Position numbers and translations under genes: made by a program. A stretch of DNA of 64,000 bases from Novakomyces olei (lineage: Eukaryota), in NCBI GenBank assembly GCA_016906335.1, contig JADEYG010000001.1:310001-374000 (forward strand), in the 5' to 3' direction. How positions within the stretch are numbered: position 1 is the first letter of the stretch; every line of letters starts with the position of its first letter. Below are positions 21,050-51,112 of this stretch, piece by piece. The notes beneath the pieces were generated by a model. It was given only the letters and a program-made list of their open reading frames with translations. It ran no database searches and was not told the origin of the DNA.

Positions 21050-22060
21050 ATGGAAGGTGTCGACATGAATCGTCTGAACCAATTTGTTGAGGAAACAACA
21101 GCGAAGTTACAGCTACTGGAGCATGAGAACATGATGCTGAAGGTCAAATTGGAAAACGATCAGGAGAGTCGACATGCGACGTTCAACCGGGAGCCCAAGT
21201 TAGCCCCGCCACCTTTGTTTTTTGGCGAGAGAGCTAAGGCTCGTGAATTTATCACCCAAGTGAAAATGATAACCGACGCACTACCCTCGAGATACGGATC
21301 GGACCGCCAGAAGGTCACGTTTGCAGCAACCTATTTGCGAGGAACCGCGTTCAGGTGGATTGAGCCTCACATCCTAGGGGAAAACGAAGGAATACTCAAC
21401 GATTTTGAGACGTTTTGTGATTCATTCCTACAGATGTTTGGTGATCGAGATATTAGAAAGCAGGCGCAGAAGCAAATTCGCAATCTGAAGCAGTCTGGAG
21501 CTGTTGCTCAGTACGCAGCCGAGTTTGACAGACTCAGAGCGAACTTTAGCTGGAACGAAGAAGCGTTGATTTCGCAGTACTACGAGGGCCTTAGCGACAG
21601 GCTTAAGGACGAATTGGCAAGAACGACAGAGCCTAGTACCTTGCGAGAGATGATCGAGATGACGATCAGTATTGATAATCGTCTATTTGAGAGACGTAAA
21701 GAGAGACAGAGAACAAGTTACGAACCGAGAACGTATTATGAGCCGAGATTTACGGGCAGAAGTAACCAGACGACTGCACCGATGGAAATTGATTTGGCGG
21801 TTGCCGGTGCCAGAGGAGCAGGCAGACCCGCAAGAGAGTACAAGACGAATGACAGAGAGCACAAGACGAATTACAGAGACGCGAGAGACGCGAGAGAAAG
21901 AGAGAGAAGTCACGACAACAGAAACGTACAGTGTTATAATTGCCAGAAGAAAGGGCATATTGCAAAAGAGTGCAAAGAAAAGAGAATTCCGTTTGTAAGC
22001 CGTCAAGCTGCAATGACGACGAACGAGTTGAGCGACGACTCGGGAAAAGATTTCGCCTAG
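21050..22060 (+). CDS. gag: Gag of element A (retrotransposon capsid + CCHC zinc knuckle)
   Basis: ATG 21050 just after the PBS; FAATYLRGTAFRW, QYYEGLSDRLKDEL, PMEID, CYNCQKKGHIAKEC; G GGA AAA slippery site at 22042-22048. Confidence 0.92.
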   Translation: MEGVDMNRLNQFVEETTAKLQLLEHENMMLKVKLENDQESRHATFNREPKLAPPPLFFGERAKAREFITQVKMITDALPSRYGSDRQKVTFAATYLRGTAFRWIEPHILGENEGILNDFETFCDSFLQMFGDRDIRKQAQKQIRNLKQSGAVAQYAAEFDRLRANFSWNEEALISQYYEGLSDRLKDELARTTEPSTLREMIEMTISIDNRLFERRKERQRTSYEPRTYYEPRFTGRSNQTTAPMEIDLAVAGARGAGRPAREYKTNDREHKTNYRDARDARERERSHDNRNVQCYNCQKKGHIAKECKEKRIPFVSRQAAMTTNELSDDSGKDFA

Positions 22061-22713
22061 AGAAAGAAGTGGTTTCTCTAGGACAAGCTGAATTAAAAGC
22101 CACTGAAAGACGACGAGATACTGGAGTGAGACATTTGGAGACGGACGTCCAAATAAATGGGCTTAGACGAAAAGCTTTAGTGGATTCAGGAGCGAACCTA
22201 AATTTCATACACCCGCGATTAATATTGAATTTGAATCTAAAGACAGAAAGACTTCAGAGACCAATTGTGATACAGGTTGTCGATGGCCGAAGCCTGGCAT
22301 CAGGACCCGTGGCGAGAACTACGAAGATTATGGACATGAAGATAGGAAATTGTGTTACACCTACGAGATTTTATGTGGCAGATATTGGCCAGAGAGACAT
22401 CATTTTGGGTATTCAATGGTTGCAAGAGAACAATCCCATTATTGATTGGAAGAATCGTACATTATCATTTGAAGTACAGAATACAGAGCAAGATTATGCA
22501 GACGCAACTTGCACGCAGACGAGCGGATTAAAGGCAAGTTTTGCGATGAAACACAAGTGCCGCAAGAGAGCGGATTTTTTCCCGAAAAACCGGAAAGCGA
22601 TAACGTTGGAAAAATCCCCCAAATTCCTACAGAATATGAAGACTATCGTGATGTATTCGATGAGAGACGAGCAGACGTATTGCCACCGCATCGAAGCTAT
22701 GATCATGAAATAA
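22042..22713 (+). CDS. Aspartic protease frame of element A (-1 relative to gag)
   Basis: ALVDSGANLNFI active site and DIILGIQWLQENNPIIDW; frame entered by a -1 shift at GGGAAAA. Confidence 0.88.
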   Translation, partial: GKRFRLEKEVVSLGQAELKATERRRDTGVRHLETDVQINGLRRKALVDSGANLNFIHPRLILNLNLKTERLQRPIVIQVVDGRSLASGPVARTTKIMDMKIGNCVTPTRFYVADIGQRDIILGIQWLQENNPIIDWKNRTLSFEVQNTEQDYADATCTQTSGLKASFAMKHKCRKRADFFPKNRKAITLEKSPKFLQNMKTIVMYSMRDEQTYCHRIEAMIMK

Positions 22714-25367
22714 TATTGGAAAAGGGATCGAAGGTACCTTTTGGACCTATCTACAACATATCTGCAGACGAGCAGAGAGAGTTGCTCAAGTATATTGAGG
22801 AAAACTTGTATAAGAAATTCATCAGAAAATCGAAGTCACCAGCAGGAGCACCCATATTGTTTGTGAAAAAGAAGGACGGGAGCTTACGACTCTGCGTGGA
22901 CTACAGAGCACTAAATGCGATTACAGTCAAGAATCGATATCCTATTCCGAGAATTGATGGACTCATCGATAAGTTAAGTGGAAGTCGTATATTTACTAAG
23001 ATCGATTTGAAAGGCGCTTACAATCTGATACGTATTCGAAATGGCGACGAGTGGAAAACCGCATTTCGTACAAGATACGGACATTTTGAATACAGAGTGA
23101 TGCCTTTTGGACTCACTAATGCGCCAGCAACTTTCCAAAACCTTATGAATGACGTATTCCGAGATATCCTGGATAGATATGTCTTAGTCTATCTGGATGA
23201 CATCCTCATTTACTCGAGAAATAAAGAGGAACATATACAGCATGCCAGAGAAGTGTTTAAGCGATTACGAGCAAGACAGCTGTTCGCAAAGGCAAGCAAA
23301 TGTGAATTTCACAAGACAAAAGTGGAATTTCTAGGATTTATTATATCGACAGAAGGAGTTTCGATGAGCTCGGACAAGACCAAGCCTATTAATGACTGGC
23401 CCACACCAAAGAACGTCAAGGACGTACAGTCGTTTCTTGGACTATGCAATTATTACAGAAGATTCATTCCTGGATTTTCAAAGATTGTGACACCAATAAC
23501 AAGTCTATTAAAGAAGGATAATACATTTAGCTGGGGAGCAGACCAAGAGAAGGCTTTTGAACAATTGAAAGACAGCTTTCGAAGAGACGTTACGTTAAAG
23601 CATTACGATCCAGAACTCGAGTGCATTGTCGAAACAGATGCCTCAGATTTCGCTATAGGAGCCGTACTGTTACAAGAACAAGGAGGCGAAAAGAGACCGA
23701 TTGCTTTTATAAGCAGAAAGCTTGAACCAGCCGAGATCAATTATGATATACACGATAAAGAGTTACTTGCGATTGTCTATGCATTCGGAATATGGAGACA
23801 CTATTTGCAAGGACATCCAAAGCCAATTATTGTATATACTGATCATCGGAACTTGCAGACGTTTACTACGACAAAGAAACTATCGAGGAGACAAGCACGT
23901 TGGTCGGAACTATTAGGAGAATATGAATTTAAGATTCGATACAGAAAAGGATCAGGAAACGCAGCAGCAGACGCGTTGAGCAGAAGAGTTGATTTTAATA
24001 ATGTTGACTTGAAGGAATACCAAATTGATAAGCCGTTGATCGATCCAGCAAGATTTGATCTAAGTATGACAACAGTCGAACATATAGATACGGACGAGAA
24101 GCTGGAAATATTGCGAGCATGCCATGATCACCCATTAGCAGGACATTTTGGACAACATCGAACGTTAGAACTAGTACAGCGTTTTAAGAAGTGGAAAAAT
24201 ATGTCGCAGGATGTTAGGGATTACGTAGCATCATGTGCGACGTGCTGGAGAAGCAAGAAATCGAGGAAGAAACCTGCAGGATTATTAAACCCGCTACAAG
24301 TACCGTCAAGACCATGGGAATCTGTTTCAATGGATTTTATCGTTAAACTTCCCGAATCCGAAGGTTTTGATTCAATACTAGTGGTTGTTGACAGATTTTC
24401 TAAAATGTGTCATTTAATCCCTTGCAAAGAATCATCCACAGCAACGGATGTAGCGAGACTATACATTGACAAGGTATTTAAACACCACGGACTACCAAAT
24501 GAAATCGTATCAGACAGAGATCCAAAGTTTTTGAGCAAATTTTGGCAAGGCATGTACCAGAACCTTGGAGTTAAGCTATTGCATTCGACGAGTCACCACC
24601 CACAAACAGATGGACAGACTGAGAGAACCAATCAAACACTCGAGCAATACTTAAGAGCCTATGTCAATTACAACCAAAACAATTGGAGCAAGCTATTGTC
24701 TTTTGCGGAATTCGCAATGAACAATGCAACAAACAGCAGTACAAGACTATCACCGTTTTACATTTGCAACGGTTATCATCCAAAGGGAATACAGATCACA
24801 ACTTCCCAGAGTGACAATCCAGCAGCAAATCAAACTACACGAGACTGGAACGAATTATTTGAACGAGTCAAAAGCAACATTCAATCTGCAAATAAAGTAT
24901 CAAAGCTACATTATGACAAAAAGAAAACAGCAGCAAATACATTTGTGCCTGGAGACAACGTGTGGATCCAGAGAAGACACATACACAGCGAGCGACCATC
25001 GGATAAACTAGATCATACAAGACTGGGACCTTTCAAAATTATTGAGGCTATAGGAAATAGCGCTTACAGGATTGAGCTTCCCCAACATATCAAAATACAC
25101 AACGTATTTAATGAAACTTTACTGGAAAAGTGTTTACCAGACCGATTTCAGAGAGACCCAACAGATGTACACGTTCCCGATGTTCTAGTGGACACGACTG
25201 AATACGAAGTCGATTACATTTGCAATCATACAGGCAGAGGCCGAAACCGCAAATATTTAGTGCATTGGAAAGGTTATGGAGTACAAGACCGTACATGGGA
25301 ACCTTTTGGAAACCTGACAAATGCAACAGAGGCAGTTAAAGCATACTGGAATAACCAAAAACATTGA
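22509..25367 (+). CDS. pol: Pol of element A: reverse transcriptase, RNase H, integrase, chromodomain
   Basis: [28 protein letters not shown] (HDHPLAGH...CATC), MDFI / SDRD / TDGQTERTN, GPF, EYEVDYI...YLVHWKGY...TWEP. Frame is -1 relative to the protease frame; start coordinate is nominal. Confidence 0.95.
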   Translation: MHADERIKGKFCDETQVPQESGFFPEKPESDNVGKIPQIPTEYEDYRDVFDERRADVLPPHRSYDHEIILEKGSKVPFGPIYNISADEQRELLKYIEENLYKKFIRKSKSPAGAPILFVKKKDGSLRLCVDYRALNAITVKNRYPIPRIDGLIDKLSGSRIFTKIDLKGAYNLIRIRNGDEWKTAFRTRYGHFEYRVMPFGLTNAPATFQNLMNDVFRDILDRYVLVYLDDILIYSRNKEEHIQHAREVFKRLRARQLFAKASKCEFHKTKVEFLGFIISTEGVSMSSDKTKPINDWPTPKNVKDVQSFLGLCNYYRRFIPGFSKIVTPITSLLKKDNTFSWGADQEKAFEQLKDSFRRDVTLKHYDPELECIVETDASDFAIGAVLLQEQGGEKRPIAFISRKLEPAEINYDIHDKELLAIVYAFGIWRHYLQGHPKPIIVYTDHRNLQTFTTTKKLSRRQARWSELLGEYEFKIRYRKGSGNAAADALSRRVDFNNVDLKEYQIDKPLIDPARFDLSMTTVEHIDTDEKLEILRACHDHPLAGHFGQHRTLELVQRFKKWKNMSQDVRDYVASCATCWRSKKSRKKPAGLLNPLQVPSRPWESVSMDFIVKLPESEGFDSILVVVDRFSKMCHLIPCKESSTATDVARLYIDKVFKHHGLPNEIVSDRDPKFLSKFWQGMYQNLGVKLLHSTSHHPQTDGQTERTNQTLEQYLRAYVNYNQNNWSKLLSFAEFAMNNATNSSTRLSPFYICNGYHPKGIQITTSQSDNPAANQTTRDWNELFERVKSNIQSANKVSKLHYDKKKTAANTFVPGDNVWIQRRHIHSERPSDKLDHTRLGPFKIIEAIGNSAYRIELPQHIKIHNVFNETLLEKCLPDRFQRDPTDVHVPDVLVDTTEYEVDYICNHTGRGRNRKYLVHWKGYGVQDRTWEPFGNLTNATEAVKAYWNNQKH

Positions 25368-25618
25368 ATCCGCAATATCAACACATAATCCGCTAAGATA
25401 CGGATCAGATATATCTATATTATTGCTTTTATTGTTATTCTATGCTACGACTATTACTTAATAAAATAATTAAGTATATACTATTATTATCATTATTATT
25501 TTTATGGAACGTCAAAGAATTATTACTTGTCGAAGTCAAGTATAACGAAGTCTATATATATGTGGGCTACCCCCACCAAATCCGCAACTTAGACATCAAA
25601 TCCGCAAATTTACGGACA

Positions 25619-26674
25619 ATGAACAATAACGTTCTTGAAGAGGGGAGGCAGCGCAAGCGATACGCGCTGGACAGCGGTAAGTTCCAATGTGTTGTGTGCA
25701 CTCGACAGTACACCCGAAAGCACGACCGCGACCGTCACATGGAGATGCACGACCCTGATCTGGTTGGCTGGGCCGAAGAGTGGTTTAAGGAGGAAGACCG
25801 ACCGAACAAACAGTTGGCGAGAGACATTTTTACTCTGCTCGCATCGGTTGATTTCGAAAAGCTCAAGCCCCATAGCGAAAGGTTTGTTTTCGATTGCAAG
25901 CCAACATGGGCACATGTCTTCGAGGACCTTTTGGAGGATGAGACAGCTTTGTTTATGGACATACGGGTTCGCGTGCATGATGACGAAATACGAATCGCCC
26001 AGGTCCTCGCATCATTCGTCCAGCCGGGGACTACGAGATACGCAGCCTACAATTTGAGGCCGATCAGCGAATACGGTTTATCGTCAGTGGGCCTTCGCGC
26101 GCAAGGATTGTTGAAGGAAAGTTATTTGAATGAACTTGGATGGAACGGGACTGCCACACCGTCGGGCACAATCACGGACGTTCACGTGGATCCGGTTCTG
26201 TGCGAAACCGTCATTGTGGGAATTCTTGGGAGAAAGCTGGTCTTTACGTGGGCCAATTCAGAGGCCAATTTACAGAAGTTGGAGCCCTATCATCGCAGGC
26301 CAGGAGACTTTATATTACCTGAAGCTCTTCGCAGCCTCGAAGGGTTAAAGATTGGAGTACTAGAGCCGGGAGTTATTTTTCGATTAAGGTCTGGGACACC
26401 ACATGCGGTGATGTCTTTTGAGAAAGCAGTCTTGATGGGTTACTATATTGCTAGCGAAGACCAGGCTTTATACCGAGTGGCAAAGTGGGAATCGTCGTGG
26501 GCTAGTACACAGTTCCCAACTATTCGAGACGAGGTAAAGGAAGATCACGAACGTTGCTTGATGGCATATCGTGATTGGGCAGGAGAAGACAGCAGGAGAC
26601 AAGGCTGGTACAAAAAGGCACAGGCGGCAGTGTCTACGTTTTTGGAAGAGGAGGATAGTGTCATATCAATATGA
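25619..26674 (+). CDS. Retrotransposon-encoded C2H2 zinc finger + JmjC-domain protein (putative histone demethylase/hydroxylase), 351 aa
   Basis: Basic patch RQRKR; C2H2 FQCVVCTRQYTRKHDRDRHMEMH; JmjC TDVHVD...GRKLVF...SGTPHAV...LMGYY. TATA-like TATATATAT at ~25553. Stop codon lies inside the 3' LTR. The frame is open from 25442 but the upstream part is low-complexity. Confidence 0.85.
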   Translation: MNNNVLEEGRQRKRYALDSGKFQCVVCTRQYTRKHDRDRHMEMHDPDLVGWAEEWFKEEDRPNKQLARDIFTLLASVDFEKLKPHSERFVFDCKPTWAHVFEDLLEDETALFMDIRVRVHDDEIRIAQVLASFVQPGTTRYAAYNLRPISEYGLSSVGLRAQGLLKESYLNELGWNGTATPSGTITDVHVDPVLCETVIVGILGRKLVFTWANSEANLQKLEPYHRRPGDFILPEALRSLEGLKIGVLEPGVIFRLRSGTPHAVMSFEKAVLMGYYIASEDQALYRVAKWESSWASTQFPTIRDEVKEDHERCLMAYRDWAGEDSRRQGWYKKAQAAVSTFLEEEDSVISI

Positions 26675-26980
26675 CATAATTCCGTTTTCATCGGAGATAA
26701 TCCGTTCGATTGCGGATTATTTCCAATTCCGGAATTTTAGTTAGCCACTTTGTGGCTTAGACAGTCTTTTCCGTAGTTGTTTCTATTTTTAGTTATAGTT
26801 AGTTAGTTCCAGCAAGGATAAAAGGAGGCCCGTTCGCACTTTTATCCGACGCTGATTATCGACCGTGTTGACCGTGTAAACCGTTTTAAGTACTATTACC
26901 TTCCATTTGGCTTCCCACCACAGTTGCCGTGAAAGCAACACAGCCGTACCCAAACCAAACAAAGAAAAACACAACACTAT

Positions 26981-30980: not shown

Positions 30981-32207
30981 TGTCATGAAATGACATAGTA
31001 CAGCAGTTGGCGTTGTCGACAATGTTGTAAGGTGGCCCTTAGAGGGGAGCACCGCGGTGTAAACTCGCGTGTCGCTACAGGCGAACACGGACTGTCCTTT
31101 GCGAGACCGCTCGACAGAAGAAGTTCAATCGGGTACCGCGCGAAGCGAGTACCGAGAAACGGGAACGTAGACTTGCGCCCGGCGCAAGAACTAAGGAAAA
31201 GGAAAAGGACGTTGTCCTTGAAAAGGCGACGGCGCTTCTCTAAAGCTTACCTGCTACAAGGCTATGTAGCAACTTTGCGATTATAAGCCCGTGGAGAAAG
31301 TTCTCTCCATGGGCGACTATGTAGACTATCCTATGAGGCTTAACGGCTCGCTTAGCCACTTCGCGGCCTAAGCCTCATCCCACCACGATCTCAATGCGAT
31401 GGTCCCAGACCATCCGCATTGGGAAAGCGGTGGCGAGCTATGAACTCTATGGATCGATCTATCTAGCTTCGTAGCGATGCGCGATCGCTACTACTACTGT
31501 CATGCGCCGCGACGTGCCTACGTCGCGCGGGCATGGACGTGGACCTGCTTCGCGCGAGCCAGGTCCAACCTGCTCGCGAGCTAGGCCACTTACGCGCTTC
31601 GCGCGAGTAATGTCCAACATTACCTCGCGCGAGCTGTTTAGATCTATCTAGCCTGAAGTCATCGCCTTTGGCGCTACAGGACTTCAGGCGTCGTTCGCTG
31701 TCGTGGTTCACGCGAGGCGGGGATCATGACAGTTGTCTGCTGAGTGTTCGTTGTTTAAAGTTTCGTATTTGTTTTATAGTATAAGAGTCTCTATTAGAGG
31801 CTTGAGCACTAAGTTCGTAGTTTTTGTTAGCTTAGTATTTTAGTGTGCTTGACCCTTTTAGAGTCATATGCACTATAGTGTTTCAGCCCACTTATACTCA
31901 ACTATAAGGAGGCTTAGTTAGTTTAGGATCACGCCACTCTTGCGTGATCGGAAGGATTATATATAGAGGACCCAACTCCTCTTAGTCCTTCGTGCGATAT
32001 ATTATTATTCATTATTATTGTTCCTAACTATTATTTCTAATTAACGCTATTCTATTAGTATGCGTTTAGTACCACTCAGTTTTCCTGGCAACTCCCTGCT
32101 GGAAGGTCAGCGTGCTTACTGACCGCAGTGGCACTGAACCAGACAGAGAGGTTGTGTTAAGCCCGGAAAGGAGGACCTCCAACGACAATCGTCCCCCTTT
32201 TTTAACA
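30981..32207. mobile_element. Probable LTR (family D) interrupted by a family B LTR
   Basis: Begins TGTCATGAAATGACA, ends TTTTAACA; TATA-like core near 31957; flanks do not give a clean TSD. Confidence 0.45.
31026..31731 (-). mobile_element. LTR, family B (706 bp)
   Basis: Reverse complement of 45534-46239; flanks AATGT/GTTGT do not match fully. Confidence 0.9.
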
Positions 32208-32583
32208 TTCTCGCACGCTAGCGAGTGCAACCCTTTGCACTCCGCTAGCGCGAGAACAATTCATAGTTATTTCGTAGACTAGTTTAGGACGAGAGCTTTC
32301 CGCTCTAACTTGTGCGACCTTCGCATAAGTTAGCTTGGGAAGAGTAGTTTAGTATGCGAAGAAGCATCCGCTCCTCCGCAACTAAATTCAGTTTACAGTT
32401 GCCTGTGAAGGCCTCTCGCCCTTCACGGGTTGATTATCTCAAAGTGGGAGTAATATATTATATTACTCCTGGTAAGCCTAATAGTAATCGCTTTCTGTGT
32501 CTTGGGTCTCTTTACTCTTTTGACTTCTGTTTAACTATACACGACCGGCCTCCAGCGGTTGTGGCTGTAAGGAGCGCCTTACA
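32208..32583 (+). mobile_element. Partial LTR, family C (3' half, diverged)
   Basis: Similar to 55620-55961; ends CCTTACA. Confidence 0.8.
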
Positions 32584-33142
32584 CTTATTCTCAATATTAT
32601 TATTATTCTAATTATCTCTTATTATGAGTTTTATCATTTACTGTGAATTACTTAATTACTTCTTACTATATGTTAGCGAATATATACACAGCTCATATTT
32701 CGTTATAACAGATTTAATATATTATTATATATGGTGCTCACAACATTACTCATTGTTTTTATCTTTGCGGGATCTTGTTAAAAATATTTTCACGGCGCTA
32801 CAAACACCGTTACAGAACATATAGCGCGATGACGGAGCTCACGCGTCCGAGGGAGGAGAGTGGCGAAGAGCCCAGTGGTCGGAAGCGCAGACAGCGCAAC
32901 GGAGGTTCGTTTAAATGTGAAGTGTGCGATCAGCCCTTTTACTATTCGAAAGATCTGAGAAAACACGAGCAGTCGTTCCATTCGATCAACCTAACGGAAA
33001 TAATAAATGGATGGAAGAAGAAAGCAGACAAGGCTATCAACTACGATATCGGATTATTGGCCTTAAAACGCGCTTTTGAATCTCCACATCATCTCATCGA
33101 AGTGGAAAAACAGGACGCGAAAATAACAATTAATCAGATCAT

Positions 33143-33581
33143 TGTAATGAACCATTTAGGGTTAGTTAGGGTTAGCGTTATAGATATAGTTTAGGGTTAT
33201 GGTTAGGGTTTACCCCACCTAGGATCCCTACCTAGGATCCCCTCTTCATTACTTACCTTTTTCCCCTCTTTTATTTCGTCTATACACTTCCGCGCGTTTA
33301 TTTACTTTGCGCTATTTATTTGTTTACTTTTTTCCGTTTTCGGCGCAGCCCCTTCGCAGCGTGCTGCGCCTTTCTCCTCCGTCCGTAGCTTATAAATAGC
33401 ACCGTGGTGAGCCCAGCTCCCCACGGGTAAATCTATTCTATATAATTTCTATTCTATTTTCTATCTATTTATTTTCTATTCTATTCAATTTCTCTATTTA
33501 ATTTTCTAATATATTTTCTTTTACTTTCAGACGCCTACGTTTCGCTCCGCCTTTCTTCCCTCCTTTTCCCCTTTCCTCACA
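33143..33581 (+). mobile_element. Solo LTR, family F (TTAGGG-containing)
   Basis: TGTAATG...CCTCACA; TSD ATCAT. Confidence 0.9.
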
Positions 33582-34055
33582 ATCATTGAGGTCTTTTTTA
33601 AGGAGAAACAATGTATCCTATTGAAAACTTATACGCGAACGGCCGACCCAGATCTGACAGTGACAAAATTTGTGACTAGTCTTATTGACAGTACAAAGAA
33701 GATTGCTATCTACAATATCAGTGGCGGAAACGAGCTTGTCCAGCCAGCGAGAGGCATGTTGGAATCTCGGATTTTTGGCTACACGCGATAACGCCCGCGT
33801 CCACTATCACCGACGTGCGCGTGGACAACATATCGCTCGGGCATACGATTTATTGTTTATCGGGAAAAAAGCTATTGTTTCTGTGGCCCGGTTTTGAGGA
33901 TCATCTGACACAGTTTGCCACATACCATCGGGCAGATGGAGATCTTTACTTACCAAAGGCGATCAAAGAATTGCGCGATTTGAAATTGGCTATATTGGGG
34001 GCGGGAGATTTTGTGATACTTCCGGCGGGTCACTGCATGCGGTTATAACCGTTGA

Positions 34056-34406
34056 TGTTAGGGGGTGACCCTGGGTGATGGACTAGCCCGATATCGCGCG
34101 GGCGGAGGCAGGAAGATGGGACGAACCAGAGTACTGTCGGGGATTATTGCAACAAGGAAACTAAGGAGCCTACAGTTGCGAAGTATAGGCGTAACCTAAA
34201 TTGATTTCACACAAGGGACAAGTAGAAGACAAGCCTCTATTTATAAGCTTGACCCTTGTGGTTAAACTATGAGAAAAACTATTCTAGAACTATCTAAGCC
34301 ACGTTAAACGAATAACTAAAAGTAATAAAGTAATAAACTGAAAAGTAGAATAAGACTCGTCGCTATATCAACCGTTCATAGCGGCATAAATAGCGACTCC
34401 CTAACA
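34056..34406. mobile_element. Solo LTR, family G
   Basis: Terminal inverted repeat TGTTAGGG...CCCTAACA; TSD GTTGA. Confidence 0.88.
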
Positions 34407-35179
34407 GTTGAGATCTCTATGATTACCGGCTACATGTTTGTCGACAAGTGCGCCGATTGGAAAAATCTAGCGCTTTGGGACGCAAAGGCTGCTCGAGATG
34501 ATGCCGCGGTGGCTGCTGTTTTTAGCGAGCACCAGGAGGCCTTGGAGCTGCTATCCTCGTGCAACCTGCTTACCCCAAATATCGAAGGAGACGTCAAGGC
34601 AGGAATTGAATACCTCGAGTCTTGAGGAGAGGGTAGTTACGGTGCGCTATATGAGGCGCTAGCTAGCGCTGAAGATAGCGCTTTTTCATTCTTTAATTTG
34701 TTTTTTTAAACTTTGTGTTACGACTTCTATTTTTAATTCTATTTTTAACTATCAGCTTCTATTATTAGTTAGCAACTTAGTTTAGTTTTATTAGTTAGTT
34801 TGATTAGTTAGTTTGATAAGTTTTTCGGGCTAAGCCCCACGGAGCGTCATAAGAATGGCACACTCCCCTCTTATGTTTGCTACGTGTAATCAAATTTTGG
34901 TGTGCAATATTTGTGTGTTCAATTTCTAGGTTCCCTACTTTCTACGTATCCTCAACAGAGCCAGCGTGAGATCTGGCATCATCACCTTATTGCACATTTA
35001 CGACTTATTGGAAGTAAAACCCCCATAACAAAATACCTTTACAAAAAGAGAATGTGCAACATGTTAAACCCACTAATTTACAAGATTTTTAAGCAACATG
35101 GCATGAACGTCTCGCCTATGCAAGTAAACAATATTGGTTGAATTTAAAAATGGAATGGCAGCCGGCAAAATACAGAACT

Positions 35180-35560: not shown

Positions 35561-36413
35561 TAACCCTAACCTAGAAGGTGTGACATGATTCAATATCATT
35601 AAGTTTGACTAAACTTTGTTTTCCCTATGGCGGTTATAACGCGGAATGATACTCACTATTATAACTCAATGTATTAAAATAGATAATAAAAAGAATAGAA
35701 AAGCTAGGTCCTAAAATATGGGAAACCGTGTTCTTTTATAAACACCCATATTAATCTGTTGTCCGAAATATCGAAATGGCGTGATAAAGTATGTGTCAGC
35801 CTCCGTCGTAGTGTGATTAATTAATAATCATATGCTACATGTAATCAAATCTTGTGTGCAATATTTTGGTATCCAATTACTAGGTTTTGTATTTTCCGCG
35901 TATCCTCGTCAAAGCCATCGTGAGATCTGGCATTCCTACCTTATTGCACCTTTACGACTTATTAAAAGTAAAGCCCCCATAACAATGACAGTTCCCCGCA
36001 ATTTGTTTTGGTAGCGCAGACAGTATACTATAGTATGTAAAATAAGTAAGTTCCGTGAACCCGAGTCGTACAAGATTGCCACAATTGTTCTGTATTCGGC
36101 GATAAACCGTTCAGCGTCTCCTCCCCACAATTTTTGAGGAGCCATGAGTTTGGCTGTTACCGCTTCGATCACTTGATTTTTCTTTTTTTCAAATTCCGAA
36201 TCTAGAGTTTTCAATAATTCTCTAGGTGATTTAATTCCGTCAATGCAGGGGTTCAAGCAATCATCCGCATATTGCTCCAATTATTTCGGCAGTGATTGTT
36301 AGCACTATAGTTCTAGGAAAACTAGATTCTTGTTCGGGTCCAATAATGAGGAGAACCTATGTAGTTCCAATGTTATGTTGCTACCCAGCACGCTTGCTTA
36401 AATACATGTGGAA

Positions 36414-36702: not shown

Positions 36703-37710
36703 TAGAACTCTTAAATGCGCGTAGTAACGAAAGCTTTTATTACTATAAGGCTCTGCCAGTCGTACGCGGCTGGCTACAGCAGGGAACTCCAGATGGAAAT
36801 TATTTCTTCCAACAAAGTTGATTAACCGTAAAGCTAAAAGAGAGAAGCCCCTTTATATCCTTTACGGACTACGTACTAACTAATGTCACTAACTATAAAA
36901 TAACTCAAGGACTATCTCAAGCAGGGTTTAAAAAGGCTAAGCCTCAACATGTAAGCTAAACTACTTTACTCGGTGCAAGTTCTTTGCAAGTTGCACTGTA
37001 CTAGCACCATGTCAGATGCGAACCATGAAATAAGGGGTCTTTTACCCAAGCCAAGCATCCAAATGGTTTTTCATAAATTAAACGATTGTCGCGATTAAAC
37101 CACATTTGATAAGGAGTTTTATCGTAGCCTTTGATTGGCTGTTGATTTCTCAAAACTATGGCGTGCTCGAATGCGTCCTCCCAAAATGTATCCGTTAGTT
37201 TAGAATCAATTAATATGCATCTTGCGATTTCTTGGATCGTACGATTAAGACGCTCAGCCACTCTATTTTGTTCTTGATTGTATGGTACTGAGGTTTCGTG
37301 CCGAATTCCCTTTTCTATAAAATAATTATTTAATTTTGTATTAACAAATTCTCGTCCATTATCAGACCGTAGTCTTTTAATTGTGATTTTCTTTTGGTTT
37401 TCAATATAGGAAATAATATTTATCAGCGCTTTAGCTGTATCTCCTTCAGTTTTCAAGATAATCCAAAACACAATTTTTTCGACCACCCATAGCGAGTAGA
37501 ATCCGTTTGTTTCCATTTCTTGACGAAGGAAAGGTCCCATAACGTCAGTATGAAGTAGGTCACATGGTTCTCGTTTTGTTTTACTATTCTCTGGAAATGG
37601 ATTTCTTGTAATTTTTCCTTTTGCACATACTTCACAATTTTTAATTTCTCCTGCACTGGCTTCAGATATTGGTTCAATTTGTGTTCTCTTAGACATTTCA
37701 ATCATCTTGG

Positions 37711-38404
37711 TGTAATGGCCCTTAGAGGGGAGCACCGCGGTGTAAACTCGCGTGTCGCTACAGGCGAACACGGACCGTCCTTTGCGAGACCGCTCGACAA
37801 AAGAAGTTCAATCGGGTACCGCGCAAAGCGAGTACCGAGAAACGGGAACGTAGACTTGCGCCCGGCGCAAGAACTAAGGAAAAGGAAAGGGATGTTGTCC
37901 TTGAAAAGGCGACGGCGCTTCTCTAAAGCTTACCTGCTACAAGGCTATGTAGCAACTTTGCGATTATAAGCCCGTGGAGAAAGTTCTCTCCATGGGCGAC
38001 TATGTAGACTATCCTATGAGGCTTAGCGGCTCGCTTAGCCACTTCGCGGTCTAAGCCTCATCCCACCACGATCTCAATGCGATGGTCCCAGACCATCCGC
38101 ATTGGGAAAGCGGTGGCGAGCTATGTACTCTATGGATCGACCTATCTAGCCTCGTAGCGATGCGCGATCGCTACTACTACTGGCATGCGCCGCGACGTGC
38201 CTACGTCGCGCGGGCATGGACGTGGACCTGCTTCGCGCGAGCCAGGTCCAACCTGCTCGCGAGCTAGGCCACTAACGCGCTTCGCGCGAGTAATGTCCAA
38301 CATTACCTCGCGCGAGCTATTCAAAGCTACCTAGCCTGAAGTCATCGCCCTTGGCGCTGCACGTCGTTCGCTGTCGTGGTTCGCGCGAGGCGGGGATCAT
38401 GACA
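37711..38404 (-). mobile_element. Solo LTR, family B (diverged)
   Basis: Matches the family B LTR; TSD CTTGG; splits the Copia HHCC region. Confidence 0.92.
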
Positions 38405-38949
38405 CTTGGTCAGTAAGGCATGCCCTTGACTTCTGTGAATATCGTAGCCATTATTTTTTGATAAATTAAAAACAAAAGTAGCCTTAAGCAATTCAGAAAT
38501 ATAAATTTCGCCATTTGATAAGCGCGTAATTCCCGTCAAGAATTTTCCTTTTTGTTTTGTTTTAAGATTTTAAAAATCAACTTTTAGATTATTATCCAGT
38601 AGAAGACCAAGAGAAATCAGATTGCAAGGTGCACTCTCAACGTAGCAGACATTATAGATTGTTGCCTCTTTACCATTAAGAATTATCTCAATGTCACCTT
38701 GTGTGTCCGCTGTAATACTTTGTCCATTGGCTATCTTTAATGATTTTTTAATTGATTTTGTATTAACAAGCCAATCCAGACGATTTGTAATATGTACGCC
38801 AGCTCCAGAGTCAATAATAAATGTAGCGCTATCACTTTCAGTAGGCTCAGCTTCATTTGTTGCAAAGTCATTGGTTAAATCTCACCATTAATGCTATTTT
38901 CTCAGAATCGGTTTTTGTATTTTTCTTCTTTAAGAACCAGCATTGTTTG

Positions 38950-39347: not shown

Positions 39348-40149
39348 GTTTGACAGAATGACCAGGCTTCTTGAAATAAAAGCATTTGTGTTAGGCCATA
39401 GTGTAGATAGTAAAATTAAAATTAAAAATGACATAATTAAATTAAATTAATTCACTCCAAATACGGAATCTAACCGATTTGGAGGAACATTTAATTACTA
39501 ATCATTAAATCAAGCCACTGATCGGGTATCTGTATCTTATCAATGATAAGGTGATTACTAATTGATCGGTTACTTCTGATCCTATCTGATTACTAATTGA
39601 TAGGAAAGTCTTAATCCTATCTCTTGGCAAATTACGAAGATAAGAGCTGAGCCTTGACGTCTATAAAAGGACAAGGTTTTCCATAGTTTAAGGGTAGATT
39701 TAATTAATCTAAAAGTTATAACAGTGAGTAATTTCCACAGTTATAACAATTTGACCCTTTTTATTATTATTTCCAGCATAATTGACTACTTCAGAAATTT
39801 CATCCCCTTCAGAGCCCTTGCTGAGAGTGGTTGCTCTGTCGATCATTTGAATTCGAACAGTTTGGAGATCCACATTTGGAATACCAACCAGATCTTTTAT
39901 TCCTTGGTATTCTTGTGGTAGGCCGTTGACATATTTTAGCATTTTATCTTCCTCGTTCATTATGGCGCCAGCCGATATCGCCTCCGTTTCGAGCTCGTCG
40001 ACTTTATTCATGCATGAATAAATATCTTTAAAGTTTTCAAGTTTCAAAGAATCCAAATTTCTCATTACTTCTCGTAGGTGAGTCTTCGAATTCTTCCCAT
40101 AGAGCTGTTTGAGGAAATCCAGAACTTCAGTGCCAGTATCGTGGCTTCT

Positions 40150-40594
40150 TGTAATGAATCTTTTAGGGTTAGTTAGGGTTAGGGTCATAGATATAGTTTA
40201 GGGTCATGGTTAGGGTTTACCTAACCAAGGATCCCTTCCTAGGATCCCTTCCTAGGATCCCCTCTTTATTACTTACCTTTTTCTCCTCTTTTATTTCGTC
40301 TATACACTTCCGCGCGTTTATTTACTTTGCGCTATTCATTTGTTTACTTCTTTCCGTTTCCGGCGCAGCCCCTTCCAAACGTGCTGCGCCTTCCGCCTCC
40401 GTCCGTAGTTTATAAATAGCGCCGTGGTGAGCCCAGCTCCCCACGGGTTAATCTATTCATTCTCTATATATTTTTCTATTCATTTTCTAATTTCTATTTA
40501 CTTTTCTCTATATATTTTCATATGTATTTTCTCTATTTTCAGACGCCTACGTTCCGCTCCACCTTTCTATCTTCCTTTCCCCCCCTTCCTCACA
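40150..40594 (+). mobile_element. Solo LTR, family F (TTAGGG-containing)
   Basis: TGTAATG...CCTCACA; TSD CTTCT; interrupts Copia gag. Confidence 0.9.
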
Positions 40595-40957: not shown

Positions 40958-42646
40958 TTGAGATTTTGCAAAATTGTTTTCTTTGAGCTGCAAAATCGAC
41001 ACATCATTTAGCTTGTTAGGTGGTGACTCAATACAAAGCAATTTAAAGTCCGCCAAGATTACACGTTGGCCTTGACAGGGAGTAGCAAAGGATAGGCAGA
41101 TAGAAGAACTAATCTCAAAACACTTATATTAAGCGGAACCTTGGTTTTTGTAACGTTCCGAACCCAGTAGAAGGATATCCCCTTCTTGTACTTGAGCTCT
41201 GCTCGTTACTTGCCGAAGATCCCATTCTACGAAACTACTAAAGTAACTAGCTTATTGCAGAAGTGCTATAGTCAGCGCTCTAAGCGCTACTCTAAGCAAC
41301 TTCCTACAATACTACTAACTAAACTAGCTAAACTAAACTAAACTACGAAGTTGCTTACTCAAGTGCTCCCAGCACCTTTCTAAGCAACCCCTGACACAGC
41401 TCTTTCGATCTCCTATGTATTTCGAAAATACTTTTCCATGCTCTATAGTTATAGGATTGATGTCATGATCCTCGCCTTGGCGAGTCCCTGACAGCCGCGT
41501 TGGGAAGCGAGGGGCGACGCCTGTAGTTGGAGTTGGGTTGTCCGCGCGTCGCAAGCTTCGCCAACGCGGCCCAAGACCAGTCGGCGCGTAACGCGATGGT
41601 CTTGGGATGTAGAAGTTGTCTTAGTGCGCATGTAGGTACGCGCACTAAGCCAGCTTGGCCCACGAGAGCGAGGGGCTCCATGCACAATGTGCACGGACCT
41701 CGCTTCCCGTTCTCATTCTCGCACGCTAGCGAGTGCGACCCTTCGCACTCCGCTTGTAAGACGGTCCTTACAGCTACAATCGCTGGAGGCCGGCCGTGTA
41801 TAGTTTAAATAAAGTAAAGGAATAAGAAAGACCAGGAAAGCAGAAAGCGATTACTGTAAAGCTTACCAGGAGTAATATAATATATTACTCCCACTTTGAG
41901 ATAATCAACCCGTGAAGGGCGAGAGGCCTTCACGGGCAACTATAAACTAAACTAAGTTGCGGAGGAGCGGATGCTCCTTCGCATTCTAAACTACTCTTCC
42001 CAAGCTAACTTATGCGAAGGTCGCACAAGTTAGAGAGGGAAGCTCTCAGCCTAAACTAATCTATGAAATAACTATGAATGTTCTCGCGCTAGCGGAGTGC
42101 GAAGGGTCGCACTCGCTAGCGTGCGAGAATGAGAACGGGAAGCGAGGTCCGTGCACATTGTGCATGGAGCCCCTCGCTCCCGTGGGCCAAGCTGGCTTAG
42201 TGCGCGTACCTACATGCGCACTAAGACAACTTCTACGTCCCAAGACCATCGCATTACGCGCCGACTGGTCTTGGGCCGCGTTGGCGAAGCTTGCGACGCG
42301 CGGACATCCCAAGTCCGACTACAGGCGTCGCCCCTCGCTTCCCAACGCGGTTGTCAGGGACTCGCCAAGGCGAGGATCATGACAGTATCCCCCCCTCCCT
42401 TGGGCGAGGTCCCCGCGCCCGCAAAACATAAAATATTCCATAAAAATAGAAAGGCGAACAAAATAAACGCTAATTTCAATTGCCGCGTGTCACAATAATA
42501 TTTTCTCCTCAGTAAACGCGTAAATAAACATATAGAATAGCATGGGAAATAAAAGGGGTGTTCGCGTTTTGTTGCAGAGGGGTAAAGAGGCAAAACGCGA
42601 AGATAAATAGTATCCAGTCGCGTTCGCAAAGACAGTTCTGAACGCG

Positions 42647-43078
42647 ATGTCGCTTGCACGTGTGACTGTGTCCGAGAAGCCGTGCGGCTATTGTGTTTCG
42701 CAGGGGAGGCGCTGTGAGTTCTTCATGACAGCCATCCCTCGCGTCCGTCGCTGCTTAGCGTGTGCGGCGCGTAAAACCAAGTGCGAGGGCGCGATGTTTA
42801 TGTCGCCGACCCTGTTGAATTCGCGCATACGCGGGTCGATCGTCGAGCGCGAGTATCGTAAGTATGATAACGCTCGTAAGGCAAAGTTGGCCTCCACTGT
42901 TCCTCGCGTTGCGACGCCCGTTGTAGAAGTCGCCCAATGCGCGGCAACCGATTCGTCTGAGGGCCTCGGGGTTGCTGTTGAAAGAGCATTGGCCGCTAAA
43001 GATCGCGAAATCGATTCGCTCCGTCAGCAGGTCCTAGAGCTGAAAGCGGAAATTTCGGCTTTGCGCGGCTTGGAATGA
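42647..43078 (+). CDS. Antisense accessory ORF of element C: Zn(II)2Cys6-like cluster + C-terminal coiled coil
   Basis: C-x2-C-x6-C-x12-C-x2-C-x6-C (CGYCVSQGRRC...CLACAARKTKC); heptad-like KDREIDSLRQQVLELKAEISALR; homologous to 51113-51568. Confidence 0.8.
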   Translation: MSLARVTVSEKPCGYCVSQGRRCEFFMTAIPRVRRCLACAARKTKCEGAMFMSPTLLNSRIRGSIVEREYRKYDNARKAKLASTVPRVATPVVEVAQCAATDSSEGLGVAVERALAAKDREIDSLRQQVLELKAEISALRGLE

Positions 43079-43290
43079 GCGCCAAAATTCTTCAAATATG
43101 CGATACATCTTGTTTTGATTTTAATAATTTTTAATACATTTTCAAAAAAAAATTTCCAAATAGCGATAAATAACTAGTGCGAATTGTGTATTATATCGCA
43201 GTCGTAAACAAAAATCAAGAGTTGAGTCTCGCGATTGCGTAAGATTACGTGAGTTGAATGACGTAACCTGTATCGCGATTAACGTAAACA

Positions 43291-45533
43291 TCATAGCTTC
43301 GGCTTAGCCGGGTGTAATCTGTGAAATTCTTTCACTAAATCGTCGCAATTTGTCAAATTGCCTGCCGGCTCCCAAGTGCGATTAGCACTATCGTATCCCT
43401 TCCAATGTACAAAATATTCCAATTTATTTCTTCGCTTCCTGGAGTCCAACACTTTCTCTACCTCCCACTCTGGTGTATTCTCAATTATTATTGGTGGTGG
43501 TGGTGCTGTCTGCTGTCGCACAATCGTAGACGTAGACTTGTACGATTCCAATAAAGAAGCATGGAATACAGGATGTATTTTCATCGTGTTCGGTAAATCC
43601 AACTTGTATGCACGTAAACCGATACGTTCCAAGATTGTAAAAGGTCCAATTTTCTTGTAATCCAACTTGTCGCTTGGCCTAGTGGTACTGATGTTCTTTC
43701 TCACTAGCCATACTTTTTGGCCGACTTCAAAATCCTTGTCGACACGGTGCGTATTAGCAAACCGTGCTTGATCGCTAATGGCGTGCTTGATCTCAATCTG
43801 TAAAAGGCGATGTAGTGTCCTCAAAAAATCAATCCGATTGTCCGCCGATGGGCATTGCCGTGCTGTTGCTATCGTAAAACGGCATTTGGGGTGATACCCA
43901 TACAAAGCATAACTAGGTGTCGCTTTTGTCGATGATTGCTCAGTATTGTTATATGCGAACTGTGCAAAAGGTAGCAAGTTTACCCAATTCGTTTGTTGGT
44001 AATTGCTGTAAATTCTCAAATATTGTTCGAGGCTCTGATTAAGCCTTTCCGTTTGTCCATCGCTCTGGGGATGGTACGCAGTTGATAACCTTTGCTTGAT
44101 ATCACAATGTGCGAGTAAATGCTTCGTAAAATGTGATACGAAAACTGATCCACGATCTGAGATAATTTCTTCTGGCAGTCCAAAGTTAGCAAATACTCTG
44201 TGAGCGTATAGCAATGCTAGTTCTTTCGCGCTCATGGTCTCGCATATTGGTACAAAGATGCCTATCTTCGTAAAGCGACATACTATAACCCAAATTGAGT
44301 CGTAGTCTTTGCCTGTGATGACATCTCTTGACACCGGGAGCTTCACAATGAAGTCCATAGCAATGCTTTCCCAAGGCTTTGTAGGTACTCGCAACGAATG
44401 TAATAGACCGTAGGGAGCATGATGCGATGATTTACTTCGTGCGCAAGTGTCGCATGACTCCACATAGTTAAATACGTCCTTTCGCATCCTTGGCCAGTAA
44501 TAGTTCCTTGTCACAAGCTCTAGCGTCTTAGCCTGTCCGGGGTGACCTGAAGTCTGCGAATCATGACATTCTTGCATGATTGATAATCGCAAATCGTTGT
44601 CTCTGGGTATGTAAATCAAACCCGAGAACATTAAAAGACCTTCCTTGTCCATTGTATAATTCTCCAAATGAGCAGCATCGGGCTTGCTCTTTAACTCCTC
44701 AATGATATTCTTGCAAATGCTGTCCTTCTCGTAGCATTTCTTAACATCCTGTGCTAGCGTTTTGTTGTCCTCAATCGCAAACACAAATTGCGATTTGTCC
44801 AAAAGCACCATTGTTCGTTCTGGCTTTTCCTCCTCTTCGCTGCTAACGTAATCGCTTCTTCGCGATAAGGAGTCAGCCTTGTGGTTAAACTTTCCCGCAC
44901 GATACACGATCACAAAATCGTAAGACGCAAGTAACTGCGACCAGCGCATTTGCCGTCTATTCAGGACACGCGCGGTCCAAAAGTACACAAGATTGCGATG
45001 ATCCGTGTATATCGTGGTTTTGTGAAGGGGACTCTCCAAGTATACCCTCCATTCCCGAAGACATACAACAATAGCTAATAGCTCCTTGTCGTGAATGTCG
45101 TAGTTCGTCTCTGCGCTTGTCATCTTGCGCGAGTAAAATGCGATTGGTCTCATGTCGCCGTTTTCATCCTTTTGCGAAAGGATCCCGCCTATCGCAAAAT
45201 CTGAGGCGTCCGTTTCCAAGAAGCTCGGCTTTTGTGGATCGAAGTGCACAAGAATAGGTGCGCCTAAGAATGCATCCTTCAACGCATTGAATGACTCCCT
45301 GCATTCGTCGCTAAACACGAACTTTGTATCCTTCTTTAAAAGCCGGGTAAGAGGTGCCGTAATCTTGCTGTAGTTGGCGATGAATCTTCGGTAATAGTTC
45401 GCCAGTCCCAGGAACGACATAACCTCCTTAACATTCTTTGGCTCGGGCCATGTTTCAATCGATTTGACCTTCGTATTTTCCATCGACAGACCTTTCGTTG
45501 AAATCACGAAGCCAAGAAACTCCGTTGTGTCGG
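43291..45533 (-). CDS. pol: Pol of element C, 3' part (RT end, RNase H, integrase, chromodomain)
   Basis: ETDASD, HHCC, MDFI / SDRG / SDGQTERLN, GPF, EWEVEKVLDSR...WKGY...TWEP; frame is continuous with 52438-53748 once element B and one TSD copy are removed (CEFHTD|TTEFLG). Confidence 0.93.
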
Positions 45534-46409
45534 TGTCATGATCCCCGCCTCGCGTGAACCACGACAGCGAACGACGCCTGAAGTCCTGTAGCGCCAAAGG
45601 CGATGACTTCAGGCTAGATAGATCTAAATAGCTCGCGCGAGGTAATGTTGGACATTACTCGCGCGAAGCGCGTAAGTGGCCTAGCTCGCGAGCAGGTTGG
45701 ACCTGGCTCGCGCGAAGCAGGTCCACGTCCATGCCCGCGCGACGTAGGCACGTCGCGGCGCATGACAGTAGTAGTAGCGATCGCGCATCGCTACGAAGCT
45801 AGATAGATCGATCCATAGAGTTCATAGCTCGCCACCGCTTTCCCAATGCGGATGGTCTGGGACCATCGCATTGAGATCGTGGTGGGATGAGGCTTAGGCC
45901 GCGAAGTGGCTAAGCGAGCCGCTAAGCCTCATAGGATAGTCTACATAGTCGCCCATGGAGAGAACTCTCTCCACGGGCTTATAATCTCAAAGTTGCTACA
46001 TAACCTTGTAGCAGGTAAGCTTTAGAGAAGCGCCGTCGCCTTTTCAAGGACAACGTCCTTTTCCTTTTCCTTAGTTCTTGCGCCGGGCGCAAGTCTACGT
46101 TCCCGTTTCTCGGTACTCGCTTCGCGCGGTACCCGATTGAACTTCCTTTGTCGAGCGGTCTCGCAAAGGACAGTCCGTGTTCGCCTGTAGCGACACGCGA
46201 GTTTACACCGCGGTGCTCCCCTCTAAGGGCCACCTTACACTATTATAAGCCCGTGAGCTCGTCTAAGCTACAGATTTACACGGCGTTGAAAGGTGTCACG
46301 CACGGAGGCGTACACAAATTTCGATTTACAAGTTTTATTTCGCACTAAGTTGTTGCGACGAAGGGTGCTTTGCTACGGTTTAGCAGCACAAACGAATTAT
46401 TGAATTACG

Positions 46410-47357
46410 ATGAGTCAAGAGGACTTGAACGCGTTTCTGCAGACGCTGCAGGCGCAGATCGCGTCGCTCCAAGAGGAGCGCGTTAAGGACAAATCGGTTA
46501 TTGAAGGCCTTCGCCAGGAAATGGGATCCCGGGGATCTCGACGATCAGGAGTCAGCGAAGGGCCAAGCATTTCGAAGCCGGATACATTCAGAGGTGATCG
46601 CAGATCGGTGGATACTTTCCTTGCACAGGTTCGCTTATACGTGAGACTCAAGCCACATGAGTTTCGCAACGACGAAGCGAAGGTCCTGTTTGCGGTATCT
46701 TATCTGCGCGGTGCCGCTTTTGCGTGGTTTGAACCCCACTTGCGCGACCACGATGAAAGCCTAATTACCAGTGACTTTGCCCTGTTTTGCGACGAGCTCT
46801 CCACGACATTTGGGAGCGTCGACCGCATTAGTCAGGCTGAGCGGGAGCTAGCATTGCTCAAACAGCGAGGATCTGTTGCTGAGTATACTTCGCGTTTTCA
46901 GCAGATCACTTCGCACTTGGATTTTAGCGATCACAGTTTACGCTACGAATATTATCAAGGATTGAAAGATCGAATTAAGGACGAATTATCTCGGTTGGAA
47001 AAATCGCGTACATTGTCAGACTTAATTGAGAAGTCTGTACGCGTGGACGAAAGGTTGTCGGATCGTTACTACGAAAGCGCTAGCCGTACGAACGCCAAGG
47101 GCGCTTCAGGCTATAGGGGCGCGACGATCGCGAACAAAGGATACACTCCCATGGAGGTAGATGCTACCAGTTACGAAAAGAAGAGCATTACCAGCGACGA
47201 ACGCCAGCGTCGAAAGAAAGAGAACAGATGTTTTACGTGCGGACGCGAAGGTCATCGCGCACGTGATTGCAAACAGAAGCAACGCAATTATGAGCAACGC
47301 ATCTCGGTGGTTATGGACAGTATCACGGAACCGGGAAAAGCGAGAGCCCAGGTCTAA
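46410..47357 (+). CDS. gag: Gag of element B
   Basis: [53 protein letters not shown] at 47333-47339. Confidence 0.93.
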   Translation: MSQEDLNAFLQTLQAQIASLQEERVKDKSVIEGLRQEMGSRGSRRSGVSEGPSISKPDTFRGDRRSVDTFLAQVRLYVRLKPHEFRNDEAKVLFAVSYLRGAAFAWFEPHLRDHDESLITSDFALFCDELSTTFGSVDRISQAERELALLKQRGSVAEYTSRFQQITSHLDFSDHSLRYEYYQGLKDRIKDELSRLEKSRTLSDLIEKSVRVDERLSDRYYESASRTNAKGASGYRGATIANKGYTPMEVDATSYEKKSITSDERQRRKKENRCFTCGREGHRARDCKQKQRNYEQRISVVMDSITEPGKARAQV

Positions 47358-50885: not shown

Positions 50886-51112
50886 ATGGGAATGCTAAGC
50901 GAGCTCCCTATTCGGGCGACGACCTTCAACTTTCGTCACCCACGCGAAACTAAGACTCAACTCTTAAAGTGATTTATTGATTTATTGATTATACCGCGAT
51001 TATTATTGTTTAAATTATTACGAGAAAATTATACAAAAACATATTCAATTACTTGTCGAACAAATAATATGGGACAACGCAAGGAGGAATGGCTGTTGAG
51101 TCACGCACACAA

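Follow-up and report, generated by a model that had tools for sequence, protein, structure and literature searches.

A putative JmjC accessory gene at the polypurine tract of LTR retrotransposons in Novakomyces olei

The sequence considered here, referred to as the window, is a 64,000 nt stretch of the Novakomyces olei genome (contig JADEYG010000001.1, positions 310,001–374,000). Positions 32829–34636 of the window contain a broken coding sequence that lies among long terminal repeat (LTR) sequences, and the question it raises is whether this is a host gene or a gene that was carried by a retrotransposon. The evidence makes it probable that the segment was once an accessory gene of an LTR retrotransposon, termed element B, and is now a dead copy; of this element only the spacer, the gene, the polypurine tract (PPT) and the 3' LTR survive in the window. 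On sequence comparison, the B gene is the closest known relative of a 351-aa open reading frame (ORF) found in the same place and orientation in a chromovirus at positions 20694–26976, termed element A. The original prediction had described the segment as a second, divergent gene with a C2H2 finger and a JmjC domain, hidden by two LTR insertions.

The interrupted gene and its relative in a chromovirus

The B gene is on the plus strand and is present in three pieces. Piece 1 (positions 32829–33142) has the start codon, a basic patch (RKRRQR) and one C2H2 finger (C-x2-C-x12-H-x4-H). Piece 2 (33582–34055) encodes the JmjC core and has two frameshifts, one near 33747 and one in a G run at 34027–34029. 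Piece 3 (34407–34624) encodes the C-terminal helical part and ends with the stop codon TGA. The pieces are separated by two plus-strand solo LTRs, which are present as predicted. Insert 1 is at 33143–33581 with a target site duplication (TSD) of ATCAT on both sides, and insert 2 is at 34056–34406 with GTTGA on both sides; each has the form TG..CA. Excision of either insert leaves the reading frame continuous, and the protein obtained after excision is collinear with the element A ORF over 274 aligned positions. In addition to the two inserts and two frameshifts, the HxD motif of the window copy reads RVD, i.e., the first His of the iron triad is Arg (CGC at 33818–33820), while the 2-oxoglutarate (2OG) lysine is kept (GKK). 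The window copy is dead, in agreement with what had been claimed.

Upstream of the gene is an AT-rich spacer (32587–32828, plus strand) of 242 bp with 27% GC and TATA-like runs. The copy is truncated on its 5' side at about 32587 by an unrelated plus-strand LTR fragment (32206–32586), which corresponds to the last 380 bp (3' end) of an LTR from the element D family, described below. This fragment is 90% identical to positions 41755–42131 and 54988–55366 (reverse) and 88% identical to 55617–55964. Downstream, the polypurine tract GAGGAGAGGGTAG (34624–34636, plus strand) overlaps the stop codon in a layout like that of element A. The 3' LTR follows at 34637–35031 on the plus strand; in the window copy it is without its first two bases (TG) and ends with ..ATAACA.

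Element A is on the plus strand and has the features of a Ty3/gypsy chromovirus: an LTR pair with the TSD CTATT, gag, protease (PR), reverse transcriptase (RT), RNase H, integrase (IN), a chromodomain and a PPT. It is young and whole, since its LTRs (20694–21011 and 26659–26976) are identical at 318 of 318 bases and the full gag-pol with chromodomain is present. A spacer of 251 bp with 30% GC follows pol; the AT-rich spacer noted before the B gene is a real feature with a counterpart in element A. The extra ORF (25619–26674, plus strand) comes next and encodes a basic patch, a C2H2 finger and a JmjC domain. The end of this ORF crosses the PPT, and the last five codons are within the 3' LTR; the 3' end of the element reads GGAAGAGGAGGATAG and then TGTCAT, which are the PPT and the LTR start, respectively.

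Several comparisons show that the B gene and the element A gene are homologous but diverged. A tblastn search with A finds the B core with an E value of 8.6e-14 (39% identity over 85 aa, A residues 175–259) and the B N-terminus with an E value of 0.003 (31% over 80 aa, A residues 7–85). When the B pieces are joined with X at each break, the local alignment is collinear and 83 of the 274 aligned residues are identical. Its Smith-Waterman score is 268, compared with a mean of 33.7 (standard deviation 5.0, maximum 53) for 500 shuffled sequences (z 47), and the alignment is therefore clearly distinct from the shuffled controls. A comparison of the family profile A1, defined below, with the B core by hhalign gives a probability of 98.9 and an E value of 1.8e-17. 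A and B are also reciprocal best matches in a set of A plus 71 database proteins. B matches A with 94 bits, and the next protein (P0004) with 58 bits; A matches B with 93 bits, the zinc-finger repeat protein P0002 with 85 bits and the next true family member (P0003) with 82 bits. Seven of the motif pairs originally proposed between the two proteins stand. The pair PARGMLES and RAQGLLKES is doubtful, because by that point the window copy has left the frame of the siblings (the sibling copies, described below, have one more base after 33747).

Element A has a further property at the protease-RT junction. The two domains are in different frames and the switch is between positions 22512 and 22587 (region 22441–22600). 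A T TTT TTC sequence at about 22573–22579 would be compatible with a second programmed -1 frameshift, in addition to the one at gag/PR. In element C, described below, protease and RT share one frame, unlike in element A.

Sibling copies and the retrotransposon context

Contigs of three public runs (X1, X2 and X3) provide copies related to the B gene; none of the runs listed for the region is an RNA run. A second form of the gene, 87–90% identical to the window copy, is found in X1 and X2. Its depth is 3450–3585 in X1, where window-identical sequence has 1100–1230, and 15–16.5 in X2, where window-identical sequence has about 5. There are thus about three uninterrupted sibling copies in the same genome. 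Comparison of siblings and window was made at the four lesion sites, with the substitutions listed in part. The siblings join position 33141 to 33600 (X1 and X2) and 34029 to 34408 (X1, X2 and X3), and in both places the insert is absent and the replacement letters are of exactly the expected length. They also carry an extra base after 33747 and an extra G in the 34027–34029 run, which places the whole gene in one frame.

The siblings help define the 3' end of element B as well. They have two more bases after 34635, so that they read GAGGAGAGGGTAG and then TGTTACGG, a canonical LTR start with TG. The word depth of 34637–35031 in X1 is 26000–62000 compared with about 1200 for single-copy sequence (25–50x), and it falls right after 35031; a contig of X3 matches exactly positions 34636–35030. 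Because of the depth, the sharp ends and the TG start in the siblings, 34637–35031 represents a genuine LTR, about 395 bp long and bounded by TG..CA, that starts immediately downstream of the PPT. The purine tract that had been noted at the end of the gene, GAGGAGAGGG at 34624–34633, is therefore followed directly by a repeated LTR, and the gene-PPT-LTR unit of element B is present in several copies. Inserts 1 and 2 are also repeated in X1, at about 17–35x the single-copy word depth. On the 5' side, the AT-rich spacer is present in a sibling copy from 32595 on. Left of this position the sibling contig from X2 stops matching the window and carries 2088 bp of upstream sequence unlike that of the window. 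The sibling copies and the LTR repeat depth together imply that there is a second family of LTR elements and that copy B is the 3' end of one of its members, truncated on the 5' side.

Two points weigh against this placement. Neither gag, pol nor a 5' LTR of element B is found in the 64-kb window, and run X1 is probably the source sample of the window and would then not be independent of it. The missing pol and 5' LTR would be expected if the segment were an ordinary host gene in a transposon graveyard, with the purine tract and LTR as coincidental neighbours, and G-rich purine runs of at least 10 nt are fairly frequent, with 34 on this strand of the 64-kb window. A coincidence of this kind is nevertheless very improbable: the gene, the PPT and the start of the LTR are all shared by the siblings at about 3x depth, the first bases of the LTR are TG, right after the PPT, and the nearest relative belongs to a bona fide retrotransposon.

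Two other assignments of the LTR sequences in copy B were considered and rejected. Insert 1 is 86% identical to 40149–40594, which would be the 5' LTR of a minus-strand Copia remnant, and could have been the 3' LTR of that remnant. However, it has a TSD of its own, the gene reads through in frame when it is removed, the siblings are without exactly this segment, and the identity is only 86%. The D-family fragment at 32206–32586 could have belonged, as its 5' LTR, to a small non-autonomous element with the gene as its only cargo. This was dismissed because the 3' LTR is unrelated and the fragment is absent from the sibling copy.

The sibling differences give a small hint of constraint on the B-type gene. 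Those listed over positions 32914–33005 affect 13 codons, of which 8 have synonymous changes, and the finger cysteine is retained, but the count is based on the listed differences only, which lessens its value as support for a selected gene.

A sequence related to the B-type LTR is found 955 bp downstream. The last 153 bp of this LTR (34878–35031) recur at 35833–35985 with 83% identity and also end with ..ATAACA; a second B-type LTR may have left this fragment.

JmjC fold and possible function

The JmjC label given in the original prediction is upheld, but not by Pfam. Neither A nor B has a match to Pfam JmjC even at an E value of 10, and a search of PDB sequences with A alone gives nothing significant. 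These negative results count against a JmjC assignment, and since both types of search fail, the label on A and B rests on profile and fold searches. A phmmer search of 1.84 billion representative proteins with A yields 70 matches with E values of 0.001 or less, nine with 1e-10 or less and none with 1e-30 or less. When 31 A homologues were analyzed by Pfam, P0003 passed the JmjC_2 model (24.4 bits, cut-off 22) and one other was just below. A homologous-protein search found none with the A ORF and none with the B core, and two JGI proteins with profile A1.

Alignment A1 consists of the A ORF and 46 phmmer matches (47 members), and A2 is a closer set of 11 sequences. H189 is invariant in A1, and D191, G183, W211 and N217 are nearly so; in A2, H189, D191, K206 and H262 are invariant. 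A search of PDB with the A1 profile finds ceKDM7A (2.1e-12), KDM2A (7.6e-11), KDM7/PHF8 (3e-9 to 8e-9; PHF8 4.7e-9) and PHF2 (3e-4). The HxD, the lysine of GxK and the second His of A1 are in register with the iron triad and 2OG lysine of KDM7 and KDM2A. An AlphaFold2 model of A based on A1 has a pLDDT of 88.1 and a pTM of 0.86. It displays the double-stranded beta-helix of JmjC proteins, and the top Foldseek matches are all from the KDM2A/KDM7/PHF2/PHF8 group (E values of 1e-11 to 1e-9), with a match that extends to the C-terminal helical part of KDM2/7. The nearest Atlas cluster to A is an Ascomycota cluster annotated as "JmjC domain-containing protein" (score 0.96).

The JmjC ligand positions in the A ORF are T186, H189, D191, K206 and H262. 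All five of these iron and 2OG ligands are retained, including T186, three residues before the His, and K206; these two are presumed to be 2OG ligands by analogy with KDM2/7 structures. The finger pattern C-x2-C-x12-H-x3/4-H is present in both A and B. The Pfam zf-C2H2 scores are 23.4 bits for B (E 7.5e-5) and 13.6 bits for A, both below the cut-off of 25.2. From sequence and the model, the A and B genes are assigned to the JmjC Fe(II)/2OG dioxygenases of the KDM2/KDM7/PHF8 kind, with the catalytic state of B predicted from its residues.

The assigned proteins differ considerably from the known KDM2/KDM7 subfamily (KDM2A/JHDM1A, KIAA1718/KDM7A, PHF8, PHF2 and ceKDM7A). The identity of the A/B family to these is only 10–15%. 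There are no PHD, CXXC, F-box or LRR readers, and one N-terminal C2H2 finger and a basic patch are present instead. The A ORF has only 351 aa, is encoded inside a retrotransposon and is known here from sequence and model. The known enzymes KDM7/PHF8 act on H3K9me2/1, H3K27me2/1 and H4K20me1, and KDM2 acts on H3K36me2/1.

The chromodomain of chromoviruses directs insertion into H3K9-methylated chromatin. A demethylase-like protein would suit element A in that its integrase has a chromodomain and the element needs to stay transcribed in heterochromatin. The predicted product of the B gene is a protein of nuclear type in which a basic patch and one C2H2 finger are combined with a JmjC domain. The element would express this protein from the spacer, via an internal promoter or a spliced RNA, and the finger and basic patch would bring it to chromatin. 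The JmjC domain may then remove repressive lysine methylation, or otherwise oppose heterochromatin like fission-yeast Epe1, and insertions targeted to heterochromatin by the chromodomain would thereby be kept transcribable. An anti-silencing role of this kind is offered as a tentative proposal, somewhat short of probable. Epe1 in fission yeast and DMM-1 in Neurospora are fungal JmjC anti-silencing factors that limit heterochromatin. They serve as functional models only, as they are host genes, are much larger, are recruited by HP1 and are likened to the A/B proteins by function and not by sequence.

The window copy of B bears on this proposal, in that it deviates at three invariant or nearly invariant family sites (G183S, H189R and N217H). 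The B lineage may accordingly be one without need for catalysis, and this speaks against an enzymatic role. The loss of the first His and two further conserved residues would fit a real cargo gene with a different role, such as a hydroxylase of proteins or nucleic acids, a chromatin binder without catalytic activity or a neutral passenger. Epe1 itself is reported to act non-enzymatically in the available text of PMC7192584. On the other side, A retains all five ligand positions, its best matches in sequence and fold are KDM2/7 demethylases, including the C-terminal helical part, and its ORF is undamaged in an element whose LTRs are identical. Such a different role is possible but the less favored interpretation. 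Within it, a non-catalytic, Epe1-like mode is a live alternative for the JmjC cargo, and it gains weight from the loss of G183, H189 and N217 in the window copy.

Demethylation of H3K9, H3K27 or H3K36 by the protein, if the anti-silencing interpretation is correct, would explain how chromodomain elements that insert into heterochromatin stay active, and the protein would then be a compact, naturally targeted demethylase to study. The intact gene in A together with the dead sister in B suggests that these retrotransposons carry their own chromatin-modifying enzyme. The results also provide a fold for a fungal protein family that is widespread and mostly missed by Pfam.

Other transposons have genes that can be compared with this cargo. 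The VANC-type factors in plants belong to the DNA-transposon enzymes and factors that act on host silencing marks. TET/JBP dioxygenase genes are present on fungal DNA transposons and are thought to counter silencing of their own family, according to the available part of PMC12730594. This cargo is like the putative A/B cargo in that an Fe(II)/2OG dioxygenase is set against epigenetic silencing of its own transposon, but it represents a different dioxygenase family, acts on 5-methylcytosine in DNA and is found on DNA transposons and Helitrons; the same part of that paper states that no retrotransposon carries TET/JBP. An ALKBH-type RNA demethylase domain is described in orchid Ty3/Gypsy elements in the available text of PMC9289625. 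It is also a 2OG-dioxygenase acquired by a Ty3/gypsy retrotransposon, but in a plant, and it is an AlkB-family domain for N6-methyladenosine in RNA and not a JmjC domain. Extra ORFs occur in both fungal and plant Ty3/gypsy elements, and one that is comparable in position is brtn, an extra gene between pol and the 3' LTR of Botrytis Boty-like elements (Zhao 2011, cited in PMC8365987). In the available text of PMC8365987, brtn is antisense and has no function assigned, whereas the A/B genes are in sense orientation and have a recognizable enzyme fold. Full-text literature searches gave no report of a JmjC demethylase-like protein from a retrotransposon, although the unnamed extra ORFs drawn for Botrytis elements in Figure S1 of PMC8365987 may include a relative with no function assigned.

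Family distribution and the surrounding LTR island

The original prediction went on to infer an old, selected cargo of one retrotransposon clade. The retrotransposon context is borne out. A shared clade is not established by the window, which has no gag or pol of B, and a single old capture is not established by the phylogeny. In a maximum likelihood tree, A and B are sisters, but with a Shimodaira-Hasegawa-like approximate likelihood ratio test (SH-aLRT) value of only 74, and B is on a long branch. The tree is based on 65 rows, after removal of P0001 (the same ORF with a leader), P0021, P0024, P0039 and five zinc-finger-only proteins (P0002, P0015, P0023, P0054 and P0070). At the DNA level, the A and B spacers and LTRs cannot be aligned (z 1.5 and 2.2), and a short motif common to the A and B LTRs near position 120 is marginal, being matched by 9 of 300 shuffles. 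Sub-alignment A3, built around P0041, gave 29 metagenome loci that sample a distant branch of the family, and none of these has gag, PR or pol beside the gene (11 have at least 1.5 kb upstream). The tree support, the unalignable flanks and the metagenome loci all argue against one ancient cargo lineage.

Since the 29 distant loci hold standalone genes, the JmjC family is not confined to retrotransposons. Among the 72 proteins there is no similarity to gag or pol (best E 0.14). Scanning of 63 of the 88 ORFs of at least 130 aa from 13 metagenome loci reveals no retroelement domains; those present are TPR, kinase, GT90, GATA-like and ankyrin domains. At one locus (L027), a 50-aa RT-like match is found 4.2 kb away on the other strand. 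At two others (L009 and L019), the standalone JmjC-family genes adjoin TPR-repeat genes like those of fungal NOD-like receptor regions. An N-terminal C2H2-like finger is present in the standalone members P0009 and P0042, as found by pattern, and in P0004 and P0016, as found by eye.

The simplest history is that a host C2H2-JmjC gene was captured by a retrotransposon and then diverged with the elements. A different origin would be two independent captures, in which A and B took different host paralogues of the same C2H2-JmjC subfamily, both into the slot between pol and the PPT. The tree path from A to B (2.89) is hardly shorter than that from A to P0005 (2.95), and the low support for A plus B, the unalignable LTRs and spacers and the frequency of standalone family members, some with the finger, are all in keeping with two captures. 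Nevertheless, A and B are reciprocal best matches against the library of 1.84 billion proteins and are sisters in the best tree. They have the same orientation and the same tight abutment of stop codon and PPT, with spacers of similar length (251 bp and at least 242 bp). Two captures are for these reasons considered unlikely. The presence of the gene in two families whose LTRs and spacers are unalignable, the second of them in multiple copies, argues that it is kept by the elements and was not dragged along once. A broader proposal is that an ascomycete LTR-retrotransposon lineage has long carried a KDM2/7-type demethylase with a DNA-binding finger as a counter-defence by which heterochromatin marks are removed from its own copies, and that the small orphan JmjC genes of Ascomycota, a large and fast-evolving family, exchange with this cargo by capture and domestication. 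This is a conceivable but doubtful extension.

The window DNA is of fungal type. Housekeeping genes are present at 1–18.3 kb (AsnRS, an MFS transporter, a calpain-like protease, COG3 and AlaRS) and at 56.7–64 kb (DUF2408, a porin and a RING protein). Between these two blocks is a 37-kb island of nested LTR elements. Element C (45533–52437, plus strand) is inserted within pol of element D (41755–55619, minus strand), and the LTRs of each are 100% identical. Element D in turn is inserted into an older solo LTR of the D family in inverted orientation (41461–41754 plus 55617–55964), which gives three levels of nesting over 41461–55964. Copia-type remnants with an integrase core and copia gag are on the minus strand at 37001–37807 and 39709–40197, and they are interrupted by a 708-bp LTR of the element C family at 37708–38408. 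Outside the island, about 24 overlapping copies of a tandem repeat with a 10-bp period are found at 4549–4898, in a stretch of 28% GC between the MFS and calpain-like genes.

Elements C and D each have one ORF antisense to the element, located between pol and the 3' LTR (51113–51625, minus strand, in C; 42611–43078, plus strand, in D). Neither ORF matches Pfam, and the two share 32% identity over 169 aa. They resemble brtn as described in the available text of PMC8365987.

Elements A, C and D have in common a TATAATCA(G/A)CCC-like motif just inside the 5' LTR, at 21012–21030, 46240–46260 and 54970–54989 (minus strand), respectively. No obvious tRNA-complementary primer binding site is present at these positions. 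Tf1 is a self-priming element, and by analogy the motif might point to self-priming in elements A, C and D.

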